NCBI GenBank assembly: GCA_030324005.1
Contig: JARDVH010000157.1
Location: forward strand, 21,608,618 to 21,672,617
Direction: 5' to 3'
Length of the DNA stretch: 64,000 nt
Source of the DNA: Negaprion brevirostris
Taxonomy: Eukaryota
Of this stretch, positions 2,623 through 56,777 are shown one piece after another. The translations under genes were made by a program, and so were the position numbers. Below the pieces are notes generated by a model. The model was not told the origin of the DNA and did no database searches. It was given only the letters and a program-made list of their open reading frames with translations. Position 1 is the first letter of the stretch. Every line of letters starts with the position of its first letter.

Positions 2623-5189
2623 ACATTTACAGTGCTGCTGGGTGGATACATGGGAATAGATGGGGTGTATATTAATAGTGCTGCTGGATGGGTATATGGG
2701 GTTTTAGGTTATGTGTGGTGTATATTTACAGTGCTGCTGGGTGGTATATGGGGTTATAGTTGTATGGGGGTATTTATGGTGTATATTTCAAGTGCTGCTC
2801 GGTAGATATATGGAGTTTTAGGGTATTTATTGTTTATACTTACAGTGCAGCAGGGTGAGTGTATGGGTTTTAGGGTATATGAGGGTGTATTGGTGTACAT
2901 TTAAAGTGTTGCTGTGTGGGTATATATAGAGTTATAGCATATATGAGGGCATATTGTATATTTACAGTGCTGCTGGATGGGTATATGGGGTTATAGGGTA
3001 TATGGATGGTATATTGGTCTATATGCTGGGTGGGTACATGGTGGGTATATGGGGTTATAGTTTATATGAGGTATATTGGTTTATATTTACAGTGCTGCTG
3101 GGTTGGTATATGGGGCTTTAGGGTATATGGGATGTATGTTTACAGTGCTGCTGGGCAGGTATGTGGGGTTTACAGTATATGTGGTGAATATTCACACTGC
3201 TGCTGTGTGGGTATATGGCATTTATGGTATATCAGGTTTATGCTTACAGTGCTGCTGCGTAGGTATATGGGTTATAGTATATATGGGGGTAATTTGGTGT
3301 ATATCATTGCAGTGCTGCTGGGTGGGTATATGGGGATTTAGGGTATATTGGTGCATATGCTGAATGGATAAATTGGATTTTAAGGTATATGGGGGTATAT
3401 TGATGTATATGATGGGTGGATATATGGAGTTATCGTGGATATGGGTTATATTGGTGTATATGTTGGGTGGGTATATGGGGTTTTAGGGCATATTTGTGTA
3501 CATGCTGAGTGGGTGTATGGCGTTATACTGTGTACGGGGGCATATTAGTGTATAAGCTGGGTGGGTATATGGGATTTAGGGTATATTGATGTATATGCTG
3601 GGTGGGTATAGTTGTGTATATACTAGGTGGGTATAAGGGTTTTTTTGATATATTGCTATATATACTGGTAGGTATATGGGGTTATAGTGTGTATGGGGAT
3701 ATATTGGTGTATAGGCTGGGTGAGTATATGGAGTTTTAAGGTAATTTGGTGTATCAGATGGGTGGGTATATGGGGTTTTAGGGGATATTGGTGCATATGC
3801 TGATTGGGTATATGGGGTTTTAAGGTATACTGGTGCATATGCTGGGTGGGTATTTGGGGTTTAGGATATATTGGTATATATGCTGGGTGGGTATATGGAT
3901 TTTTAGGGTGTATAGGTGTACATGCTGTCTGGGTATTTGGGGTTTCAGTGAATATTGATGAAAATGCTGGTTGGTTATATGTAGTTTCAGGGTATATTGG
4001 CATATATGCTGGATGGGTATATGGAGTCTTAGGGTATATTGGTGTATATTTTGGGTGGGTAAATGGGGTTTCAGGGTATATTGGTGTATATGCTGGTTGG
4101 GTATAGGTGGTTTTAGGGTATAGTTGTGTATATGCTGGTTGGATATATGTGGTTTTAGGGTATAGTTGTGTATATGCTGGGTGGGTATATGGGGTTTTAG
4201 GGTATATTTGTGTATATGTTGGGTGGGTATATGGGGTTTTAGGTATGTTGGTGTACATGCTGCGTGGAAAATGGGGTTTTAGGATACATTGGTATATTTA
4301 CTGGGTGGGTATCAGGGTTTTAGGGTATATTGGTGTATATGCTGGGTAGGCATATGGGATTATAGGATATATTGGTGTATATGCTGGGTAGGTTTATGAG
4401 GTTTTACAGTATATTGCTATCTATCTATATATGCTGGGAAGCTTTATGTGGTTTTAGGGCATATTGATTCATATGCTGGGAGGGTATAAGGGGTTTTAGG
4501 GTATGTTGGTGTACGTGCTGGGTGGGTTATGGGGTTTTAGGTTTTATTGGTTTATATGCTGGGTGGATATATGGACTCTTAGGGTAATNNNNNNNNNNNN
4601 NNNNNNNNNNNNNNNNNNNNNNNNNNNNNNNNNNNNNNNNNNNNNNNNNNNNNNNNNNNNNNNNNNNNNNNNNNNNNNNNNNNNNNNNCTGGTTGGATAT
4701 ATGTTGTTTTAGGGTATTTTTGTGTATATGCTGGGTGGGTATATGGGGTTTTAGGGTAAATTTCTGTATATGCTGGGAGGGTATATGAGGTTTTAGGGTA
4801 TATTGGTGCATATACTGGGTGGGTATATGGGATTTTAGGATATATTGGTGTATATGCTGGGTGGGTATATATGGTTTTAGGGCATATTAGTGTCTATGCT
4901 TGGTGGGTATATGGGGTTTAGAGTATTTTGGTGTATATGCTGGGTGGGTATATGGGGTTTTAGGGTATATTAGTGTATATGTTGGTTGGGTATATGGGGG
5001 TTTAGGGTATATTGGTGTACGTGATCGGTGGGTATATGGGGTTTTAGGGGAAATTTGGTGTATATGCTGTGTGAGTATATGGGGTTTTAGAGTATATTGG
5101 TGTACATGCAGGGTGGGTATATGGGGTTTTAGAGTATATTGGCGTACGTCCTGGGTCGGTATATGGGGTTTAGGGTATATTGGTATAAG

Positions 5190-5700
5190 AGGCTGTGTGG
5201 ATTTCTGCTGAGCCGCCACTTCCGCATTGTGAGGCCCATACTTGGGCAAGCTGGAGGCTCGGCCGCCGATTGGCTGAGCGCGGGGTTGGCTGCGTGACCC
5301 GGATGATCACTCGGGCCCGAGGAAGGAGCCGTCCGCGAGAGCGCCGCCGCCAACCGTCACCGCCGCCATGGTGAGTACGGGGCCGGGGGTGAGAGAGCGA
5401 GGCACCGGGGGCAGCTTGTCCGGTTGTGCCCCCTCAACCTCGGGGGCGGGGATGTCCGTGTTAGAAACCGCCTCTTTTATTTGTGAGAGAGGAGCGGAAA
5501 TCGGGGCGGAGAGCCGGCCAGACCTCCATTCTGCTGCGCTCCTGCCTTCCCCGGTCTCTGCTTCATCTCCCTTCCCCGAGCCCGGCCACCCTTTTCGAGA
5601 CTGTGGTCAACCTCCTTCCCCCCCGCTGCCACCCCGTCAGCTCTCCTCTCCCACCCCACCCCCACATTGCGCCTCCCTGTACCAGTGGAGGTAAACTTCC
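5190..5700 (+). promoter_or_regulatory. CpG-island promoter, 5' UTR and start of intron 1 of CAPZB
   Basis: The only extended GC- and CpG-rich segment of the window. Contains an ETS-like ACTTCCG (5218-5224), an inverted CCAAT box ATTGG (5269-5273), CCGGATG (5299-5305) and GGGGCGG boxes downstream of the donor. Confidence 0.85.
5368..5370 (+). CDS. CAPZB: CAPZB coding exon 1 (initiator ATG only)
   Basis: Kozak context CCGCCGCC-ATG followed directly by the consensus donor GTGAGT (5371-5376), inside a CpG island. A phase-0 join to exon 2 gives [11 protein letters not shown], matching the vertebrate CAPZB N-terminus (human [11 protein letters not shown]). Confidence 0.9.
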
Positions 5701-19429: not shown

Positions 19430-20340
19430 AGGTGTTAACTTGCATTTATAAAACGCCTTCTGTGTAGTAGAAATCCTTGAGGCCCTTAACAGGAGTGTTC
19501 TATCTGACATTGGGCTGCATGAGGAGGNNNNNNNNNNNNNNNNNNNNNNNNNNNGAGAGAGGTTTTCAGGAGCATTTTAAAGGAGGAAATCGATTTGGAG
19601 AGATGGTGAGGTTTATGGATGGAATTCCAGAGTTTAGGACTGAGACAGCTAAAAGTACGGCCATAAAGGTGGTGTCAAGGGAATGTTAGAGAACCACACA
19701 AAGATGGAAGTGGAGGAACGTAGACTTCAGTGACGATTGTAACCATAGAATCCTATAGTGCAGAAGGAGGCCTTTCGGTCCATCGAACCCGCACTGCCTA
19801 CAATCCTACCCAAGCCCTATCCCCATAATCCCAGGCATCTACCTTGGCTAGTCCCCCTGACATTAAGGAGCAATTTAGCATGGCCAATCGACCTAACCCG
19901 CACATCTTTGGATTGTGGGAGGAAAACGGAGCCCCCAGAGCAAACTCACACAGACACAAAGAGAATATGCAAACTCCACACAGACAGTGACCCAAGTCCT
20001 AGCTGCTGTGAGGCAGCATTGTGCCACCGTTCCACCCACGTAATGCTGGAGGAGGTTATACAGTTGAGAAGGGTGAGGGCATAGAGCCATTTGGGCATTA
20101 GAATGAGAATTTTAAATTTGAGGAGTTGGTGGATTGGGAGCCAATCTTTGTTGCAAATCACATGATGGCTGAACAGGACCTTTACAGGTTGGGATGCGTT
20201 AGCAAAACTTTGGATGAACTCAAGATTTATGTAGCTGGGGAGCCAGCAAGGAAAGCAAGCGGGTGGTATTGAGATAAAATCTTGAATGAGGGTTTCAACA
20301 GCGGATAGACTCAGGAAAGATTGGAAATGGGTGTTATGAT
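19430..20340 (-). mobile_element. Old L2-like LINE tail region with a nested HE1 SINE
   Basis: Purine-rich + strand (GAGAGAGGTTTTCAGGAGCATTTTAAAGGAGG, GAATGAGAATTTTAAATTTGAGG) typical of reverse-oriented L2 3' ends; highly diverged. Confidence 0.5.
19744..20037 (-). mobile_element. HE1-type V-SINE
   Basis: Near full-length match to the other HE1 copies. Confidence 0.9.
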
Positions 20341-21151
20341 ATTGTAAACTTGTTCAGCAAGTGAATATCTTGGGTTGCTTCTTCTCAGTTTACTTCATTC
20401 CCCCTCCAGGTTGTGCTGCTTATATTGTGGTACAATTTCATAACTGAAGTGACCCTTGCTCTTTTATCAAAGTGGCCTATCTTTGACCTTGAGTATTGTG
20501 TTAGGTTCTGGAGATGTTGTAATATTGAGGAAGAAGGGTCCATAATTTTGTGTGGACTTTACAGCAGCAGTCAGTGGTGAACCCACTCTTAATCAAGATC
20601 CTTTTTGGTCAAGAGTCCCAACAGGTGTAAATCTTTGCCTTTGAAGGGTGCAGTTGTTTAGGGATAATGTTTCCACATCAGAGCTATACGAACAAGGATG
20701 GTCCAGTTTCACTGTGCAATCTTACTAAATTAGTAAATCTCAGTTTGGGTAGAAGCAGAAGTAATATTGTTGGCAGCAACAATTATTCTTGTCTGCCTGT
20801 TTAGTGTGTGTTTGTATTATGTTATATGTGTGCAGATGTGATGTCACAGGGATGTAATTTTAGATTTGTCTGGTCACAAATAATGGAAATATCGGATCCC
20901 AGTCTATTTAATTATCATATGTATCTGCATCCTTTGAAGGATTACAGACGAGAGCGTTACCAGGTCAGTTTACTTCTGGACGAGACGTTCTTCATTCCAG
21001 CATTGATAGCAGTCGTCTTCCATTCCACGTTCTTTTCTAGATGTTCATGGCTCTAATTCTGGTTGTGTGCATCTGATTTGGCCTCTGGGTTATGGTTCTA
21101 ATAATATAATTGCTATGCTACCATTTTCTTGTAAAGAAGGTAATGAGCATT

Positions 21152-21252
21152 ACAGAAACACAAAATACTGGAGATCTCAGCAGGTCTGACAGCACCTGTC
21201 GGGAGAGAATAGAGCTAATGTTTTGAGCCTGGATGACTCTTCATCAGAGCTC
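21152..21252 (-). mobile_element. Penelope-type terminal fragment with a minimal hammerhead ribozyme relic
   Basis: Reverse complement: GAGCT-CTGATGA-AGAGTCATCCAGGCTC-AAAACATT-AGCTC-TATTCTCTCCCGACAGGTGCTGTCAGACCTGCTGAGATCTCCAGTATTTTG. Confidence 0.75.
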
Positions 21253-22089
21253 GTAACAAGTATGCAGATAGGTTTGAATTCTTAGCTTGTGCTGATCTTG
21301 TTCTCAGCCATGGCAGCAATTACAATATTAGAACTTGCTGCAGCATGTTTGGGTTAGGGTTTAGCTCCACTTGGATGGCATATTGCATAGAAATGTCAGG
21401 AGTAGCTGACCTTCAGAAAAATAAATGGGAAGATGAGAAAACTTCATCAAAGGAAGAGAAAGGAAAAAGCAAGTAACCAGCAATTTGTTGTTTTAGGGCA
21501 GGGCAGAAAATAATTGTGTAAAAGAGTGAGTTGTTGTTGCTTAATGCAAATGTAAATAGCAGTTTTGTTGCTATCGTTTTTCACCAATGAGAATTCTGAA
21601 AATCCTGCAACAGGGCAGTAGACATAAAACTATACTCAACAAACATCAAGAAATTCAAAGTTCATTCTTTATCATCTTGTTCTTAAAGTGCAGCTAGTTA
21701 CCATTCAAAAACTACACCTGGACTTTTCAAGTAATGCAGTAAAAACAATGCAGGAGGGAGATGAAAATCTGCGCATGAAAAAGAGAGATTATGGTAATAG
21801 CAGTGAAACCACATGTGAGGTAATGAGCTGCACAATGTGAACTATATACAGTTAAACTGAGAGCTGAAGCAATGTTCCCTCTCAGAATGTATAGCAACTG
21901 AGAAGTTCCCCCATAAGCCATATAAAGATGGAACCCTTTAAGTCACTACCATGTGCAGCTATACAGATATATAAAGGGGCTATACATTTAAACAAATTGC
22001 CCACATACTCCCTAGAAAAATTAGAGGGCCATTGGTTGCTCGTACATGATTTATTCAGCTGGCACTGGAATGATAGGTTGACTGACCTC

Positions 22090-26745: not shown

Positions 26746-27445
26746 TTCATCCACAGTATTTACTCCATCTATTGCATTTCCTTTATCTGTATCATTTATA
26801 TCTTTTTAAAAATATCTGCCAAACATTTTGCCTAAGACAAATCCATGGGGACAGTAAATGCTCTCATGATGTCAGATTAGACATTTGAAGAGCTTGGTCA
26901 CATCTGACATTCTTGTCTGTCGTCACCCAGTTTAATCTTATCTCCTAATTTTGTGTCGCATTTGTCACTACATAATTATTGTCTACATTGCTATGACCAT
27001 GGCCACACATATGGAAAGAGAGAAATTAAAATCATTCAAAGCATTTATGATCCTTTCTTCTCTTGAAATATTGAATTAATATTTAATATTAATTACTCAT
27101 ATTGAAATAGTATCAATGCACTCATGTTTCTGTGATTTTTATTATTCATTCTTGGAATGTGAGCTGGCCAACATTGTTGCCCATCTATAATTGCCTTCAA
27201 AGAAGGTGAGCTGTCTTCTTGAACTACTGCAGTCCCTGTAATTGGGTTATACTGACAGTGCTGTTAAGGAGGAAGTTCCAGTTTTTCACCTTGTGACATT
27301 GAAGGAGCACTTTATTGATTAGTTAATAATTATGACCATTTGATTGTATTGAGAGCTAGAAGGATAGGTACAGGTGATAGCAGAACAATCTACAAAAATG
27401 TTATGAAAATGGATATCTATCTGTGGAATGGAATTGTTCAGATTG

Positions 27446-27880: not shown

Positions 27881-27982
<102 letters not shown>

Positions 27983-56639: not shown

Positions 56640-56777
<138 letters not shown>

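Follow-up and report, generated by a model that had tools for sequence, protein, structure and literature searches.

An ATG in strong context, an open frame and a donor-like splice site were found together in intron 1 of capzb of Negaprion brevirostris, within a window of 64,000 nucleotides (the whole stretch of DNA that was analysed, to which all positions refer). By our own judgement of the odds, no reading is likelier than a chance arrangement in this 22-kb intron, at somewhat better than even, and the segment is probably not an exon, whether it is a non-coding element or simply neutral DNA. Its ATG, frame and donor would then make up a pseudo-exon in single-copy intronic DNA, removed together with the rest of the intron, and we infer that the gene does not use it and makes only its usual start, in which Met is joined to exon 2. 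The CpGs kept at the site and its low divergence from a relative may mark a small non-coding element (an enhancer or a weakly methylated patch), on which the pattern would happen to sit. The chance pseudo-exon is favoured because its expected rate is not small in simulated and real shark DNA, and because the peptide is absent from the CAPZB records of cartilaginous fishes and the protein databases searched. It is also favoured because core promoter boxes are lacking, the upstream DNA is CpG-poor and the 5′ half of the longer frame is intron-like, and because a difference-free gap of the length seen in a relative also arises in simulations.

The candidate element and its host gene

The host gene is capzb, whose exon 2 matches CapZ beta chains (E = 3.6e-13), and the DNA upstream of its initiator ATG matches a Chiloscyllium record in its read-through N-terminus (E = 2e-24). 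Intron 1 extends from 5371 to 27880 and encloses the candidate site (Table 1). Directly 5′ of the capzb CpG island, positions 3000–5200 are occupied by a strongly G/T-skewed array of short tandem repeats. The gene is present as one copy in the genome, and both alternative 3′ exons, encoding the β1 and β2 C-termini, were located downstream of the window (L007:1268–1369 and L007:6616–6705). Exon 4 stands alone on scaffold C121 (66803145–66803264, L002), and exon 5 was not found in the genome; N gaps lie in C157 where exons 4–5 are expected. A second capzb gene on C121 was rejected, since that scaffold holds exon 4 alone and C157 is gapped there, and the lone exon is likely a misplacement in the assembly. 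Both exon 4 and the last exon of the Mustelus asterias CAPZB record are identical to the N. brevirostris genome.

Table 1. Positions of the capzb exons and of the candidate features in the window.
Feature	Positions	Strand	Basis
capzb exon 1 end: initiator ATG (codes Met only), donor GTGAGT, CpG island	5368..5370	+	ATG/GTGAGT seen in sequence
Pyrimidine-rich tract and TAG acceptor, 13/17 pyrimidines, no upstream AG	20780..20804	+	
Block without listed difference in organism B	20780..20984	.	run X2
Possible cassette exon, 159 nt, 53 open codons, phase 0-0	20805..20963	+	acceptor, frame, donor; exon use putative
27-codon frame from strong-context ATG	20883..20963	+	direct reading
CpG cluster, 6 CpG, mostly at and after donor	20948..21030	+	
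Donor-like site CAG/GTCAGT, phase 0, 9.07 bits	20961..20969	+	donor matrix score
capzb exon 2, 90 nt, phase 0	27881..27970	+	CapZ beta match
capzb exon 3, 122 nt	56655..56776	+	

The original prediction had proposed an alternative first exon here, and its reading of the letters was reproduced: the ATG (20883–20885) is preceded by A at −3 and followed by G at +4, no stop interrupts the 27 codons from it, which are spelled as before, and the donor lies in the phase fit to join exon 2. On a vertebrate donor matrix built from textbook frequencies, the candidate compares well with the real donors of capzb exons 1–3 (9.43, 8.34, and 12.43 bits); eight sites in intron 1 score as high, and a strong in-frame ATG accompanies the candidate only. 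No stop occurs in this frame from 20805 to 21053, 30 codons of it lying past the donor, and it holds in-frame ATGs also at 20826 and 20841. These two extra ATGs and an acceptor at 20804/5 are features that the prediction missed. Translation would add 26 residues from the ATG at 20883 and 40 or 45 if it began at one of the upstream ATGs; as a cassette, the segment would add 53. Out-of-frame ATGs lie at 20819, 20836, and 20852, ahead of the one at 20883. The acceptor is the best among 12 AGs in 200 nt, and real acceptors hold 15/17 and 10/17 pyrimidines. The composition of the 81-nt frame resembles real exons, and the 5′ half of the 159-nt segment is T-rich (42% T, 8% C) and intron-like. A small imperfect hairpin with CpG-rich arms (20951–20993) appeared in both folds, and its loop contains the donor.

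Surroundings, chance expectation and a relative's DNA

The statement that no repeat is recognisable at this site proved correct, as the candidate is single copy by DNA, protein and 18-nt pattern search, the last giving one exact match and one one-mismatch match elsewhere (control, 1). Positions 20050–21140 had no blastn cover in 243.5 kb of the same genome and both flanks are repeats, leaving a repeat-free stretch of ~1.1 kb between them. A transposable-element fragment was rejected, since no further copies occur in the genome; very old, decayed copies are still possible. The reported local retention of CpG was also confirmed, with 6 CpGs in the cluster against only 1 in the 500 nt that precede the ATG, and clusters of at least 6 CpGs per 83 nt occur three times in 6000–27880, the candidate site among them. 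No TATA, GC or CCAAT box was found near the ATG at 20883, and one CRE-like 8-mer at 20839 is weak. An intronic small RNA (snoRNA, miRNA) was rejected, since Rfam gave no match below E 4 in 20300–21300, none over the candidate element and none at gathering score in the whole window, and the fold was unremarkable (z = 0.06 and 1.17, no better than shuffles).

The caveat that such a pattern could arise by chance in a 22-kb intron was well founded. The strict pattern is expected in about 10–30% of introns of this length, and under loose criteria an ATG, frame and donor occur together in most of them. Among introns simulated with a third-order Markov model, 5–6 of 60 carried the strict pattern. The real background comprised 419,448 strand-bases of the same genome (18 loci on both strands, with parts of the window), and rates were expressed per 22.2 kb. 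A strong ATG, a donor of at least 9.07 bits and at least 20 codons gave 2 matches (0.11 per intron), a donor of at least 8 bits gave 6 (0.32 per intron), and looser ATG or donor criteria gave 19–56 (1.0–3.0 per intron). At the candidate's exact values (at least 27 codons) no match was found in the 419,448 strand-bases; the strict thresholds were taken from the candidate's own values, and the strict figures hence flatter it. In the cassette test on 412,838 strand-bases, 5 matches of at least 30 nt were obtained, at least 2 of which are true CAPZA exons, and none of at least 150 nt; the raw chance rate at looser lengths was 0.16–0.48 per intron. The ATG-frame-donor pattern is uncommon, yet not beyond chance, and its excess over chance is modest.

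Pseudo-exons and cryptic splice signals are a general class of intronic sequence that combines good signals with an open frame and shows no sign of being used. The candidate shares these properties, and such patterns number 0.1–3 per intron of this size, depending on the criterion. It also overlaps a CpG cluster and lies in a difference-free block, neither of which a plain pseudo-exon would require. Against a pseudo-exon, no other site in intron 1 passes the strict test and none but this one passes the cassette test, the background gave no match to either at the candidate's full values, and the site sits on one of the three CpG clusters.

Two runs, whose kind is unrecorded, span the stretch. 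The first (X1, organism A) is identical over 20340–21062 and may share the source of the window, so that it is not independent. The second (X2, organism B) has 16 differing letters in these 723 nt (2.2% divergence), of which 13 are listed by position, the remaining 3 probably being close to the piece ends. Conservation in related sharks had been proposed as a check; organism B keeps the ATG, frame, acceptor and donor, the left edge of its difference-free block coinciding with the acceptor tract, but this is one relative, too close to show synonymous bias. Assuming uniform scatter, the probability of no difference was 0.12 for 90 nt (the frame first reported) and 0.0076 for the 190 nt from acceptor to donor (0.047 with 8 clustered differences left out). 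A gap of at least 205 nt among 16 random differences appeared in 7.6% of simulations. None of the 8 CpGs differs in organism B. This block, with probabilities of 0.008–0.12 according to its boundary, and the unchanged CpGs argue against the pseudo-exon, although the run was retrieved with 20760–20990 as the query, a mild selection in favour of conservation. The block is a hint from one close relative, as compatible with a non-coding element as with an exon. The contigs of both runs are unspliced across the donor, with no joints, as DNA would give, and exon 2 lies outside the stretch compared. Near 21062, organism B carries ~57 extra bases and the contig of organism A ends at the same place, which suggests an indel polymorphism.

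Annotated CAPZB proteins and mammalian β3

A total of 364 proteins were collected, including 22 CAPZB records from cartilaginous fishes (21 by name, 1 by cluster), and the candidate peptide occurred in none of these 22. Thirteen of them join Met to exon 2, two read through exon 1, one has another start of 15 residues, and six are without the start of exon 2. The shark β2 cluster was covered in full (15/15 members, Mustelus asterias included), and 15–16 of 480 members were listed for the cluster with shark β1 forms, so that the absence from annotation is incomplete. Two large protein searches, both covering cluster representatives only, were equally negative. No representative of 82–2000 residues (5.8 billion searched) had three 5-residue words in common with the peptide in its 46-residue version, and HMMER found no credible relative among 1.84 billion representatives, its one match being a tandem-repeat artefact. 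That match (P0263, E = 1e-5) was rejected, as five tandem copies of a unit inflate its score, the best single stretch reaching 28 bits; it gave no Pfam family above cut-off. The ESM Atlas, which has low recognition value for such a query, gave no relative of the peptide. One metagenome locus (L027) among 156 pattern matches was rejected at 29.6 bits without DNA likeness. The literature searched, with most subscription papers outside its reach, gave no account of such a shark exon, and within the same reach no paper joining capzb, shark, testis and transcriptome. The accessible portions of PMC5888912 and PMC4465641 contain nothing on 5′ exons.

CAPZB N-termini are diverse, with 86 distinct extensions among the 364 proteins. 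The predicted Carcharodon carcharias isoform X1 (XP_041062380.1) is likewise a shark alternative N-terminus, of 15 residues, joined to exon 2; its start peptide is unrelated to the candidate. The best match to this start in intron 1 is a weak one at 26975–27020 (tblastn E = 0.005), with 5 base changes over 9 codons versus at least 8 elsewhere, a result equalled by 2 of 12 shuffled peptides. This place is single copy and its ATG and donor are missing; it may be the orthologous site of a start used in one lineage only.

Mammalian β3 consists of β2 with 29 additional N-terminal residues and is male-germ-cell specific (PMC2168092; PMC3472329). In a review, β3 is thought to pair with α3 and is found in the sperm head, and the role of testis capping protein is described there as not clarified (PMC7138945). 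The human, bovine and mouse β3 forms (NP_001269091.1, NP_788821.1, and NP_001258334.1) arise from the same gene and intron as the shark candidate, with the same phase 0 join to exon 2 and 30 codons versus 27. β3 is documented both as RNA and as protein and is conserved among placentals, whereas the shark candidate is known from DNA sequence; the shark frame, unlike β3, is preceded by additional in-frame ATGs and a putative acceptor. The absence of clear similarity between the two, already noted in the prediction, was upheld, the best local alignments to the three β3 forms covering 3–5 residues with scores of 17–18. The β3 core motif was found in 28 of 99 records with at least 8 residues before exon 2, all placental; marsupial extensions resemble β3 by eye, and no look-alike was seen among the bird, reptile, amphibian and fish extensions examined. 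Comparison of the 86 distinct extensions with the shark peptide gave none that beats chance over 172 comparisons, the lowest shuffle p (0.01) belonging to an unrelated extension. By its sequence, the candidate does not belong to the β3 family and, if used, would be alike by gene structure.

Mammalian CAPZA3, the germ-cell α3 partner, is intronless. The shark genome contains three CAPZA loci (C73, C143, and C163), all intron-bearing, and no single-exon copy was present among the 16 candidates scored. The C163 locus is diverged, with 41–44 of 69 residues identical in one exon versus 50 of 69 between the other two. This third paralogue (G000:C163:85493000-85519000; L013, L014, L018–L020) has an altered C-terminus that is 14 residues longer. 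The CAPZA C-terminus is the actin-binding end. From its sequence, the C163 gene is a candidate testis-type α subunit or a relative of the amniote CAPZA3 parent.

Alternative readings and their meaning

That the exon is real, counting its possible forms as a first exon and as a cassette together, falls somewhat short of even. The form originally proposed, a lineage-restricted alternative first exon convergent with mammalian β3, is possible but rather unlikely. A weak CpG-poor promoter upstream of ~20800–20880 would give a transcript in which 20963 is joined to exon 2 and which is translated mainly from the ATG at 20883, or from the weaker ones at 20826 and 20841, with 26 (40, 45) extra N-terminal residues. 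By analogy, it might work like mammalian β3 with an independent origin; a use in germ cells would be no more than a guess. The strong ATG context, a donor as good as real ones and the right phase are consistent with it, as are the absence of listed differences in organism B, the weak CRE-like 8-mer and the CpGs kept at and after the donor; CpGs are usually kept at the 3′ side of first exons. CAPZB moreover tolerates many N-terminal first exons (86 distinct among 364), one annotated in Carcharodon, and the genome has a third, fast-evolving CAPZA gene. The pattern is, however, frequent enough by chance and absent from the 22 cartilaginous-fish records, core promoter motifs are lacking and upstream CpG depletion is strong, and three out-of-frame ATGs would precede the main one if the start site were upstream. 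The suggestion that the exon is an ancient counterpart of β3, inherited from the jawed-vertebrate ancestor, found no support and is extremely improbable. The length is similar, and the intron and phase are the same, but phase 0 is forced by the gene structure, there is no sequence likeness, and the core motif was seen in placentals only.

An internal cassette exon is a rival that the prediction had not considered, and we regard it as unlikely. A 159-nt exon spliced in ahead of exon 2 would add 53 residues after the first Met, and since exon 1 codes Met only, such an in-frame cassette would need no new promoter; variants would use an acceptor at 20850, for an in-frame exon of 114 nt, or one at 20836, for an exon of 128 nt with a two-codon upstream frame. 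The best of the 12 acceptors keeps the reading frame, which opens exactly there, but a phase-0 TAG acceptor always bounds an open frame. The difference-free block of organism B begins at the pyrimidine tract, but the acceptor was chosen after this gap was seen. The absence of background matches of at least 150 nt, and the true exons among those of at least 30 nt, speak for the cassette, while the raw rate at looser lengths speaks against it. Codons 1–26 are rich in T and encode many Cys and Val residues, unlike real exons, and a commonly included exon would be expected in shark annotations, from which it is absent.

On the best reading, a chance pseudo-exon, the site has no wider significance, as pseudo-exons are common. 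If the exon were real, sharks would possess an unannotated CapZ β isoform without sequence kinship to β3. Going further by analogy, sharks might have independently evolved a germ-cell capping complex of the extended β and the C163 CAPZA, converging on the mammalian α3/β3 sperm heterodimer, which we consider highly unlikely. If the extension were true and germ-cell specific, an N-terminal extension of CapZ β for sperm would have arisen twice, and this double origin would help to pin down the function of the mammalian extension.
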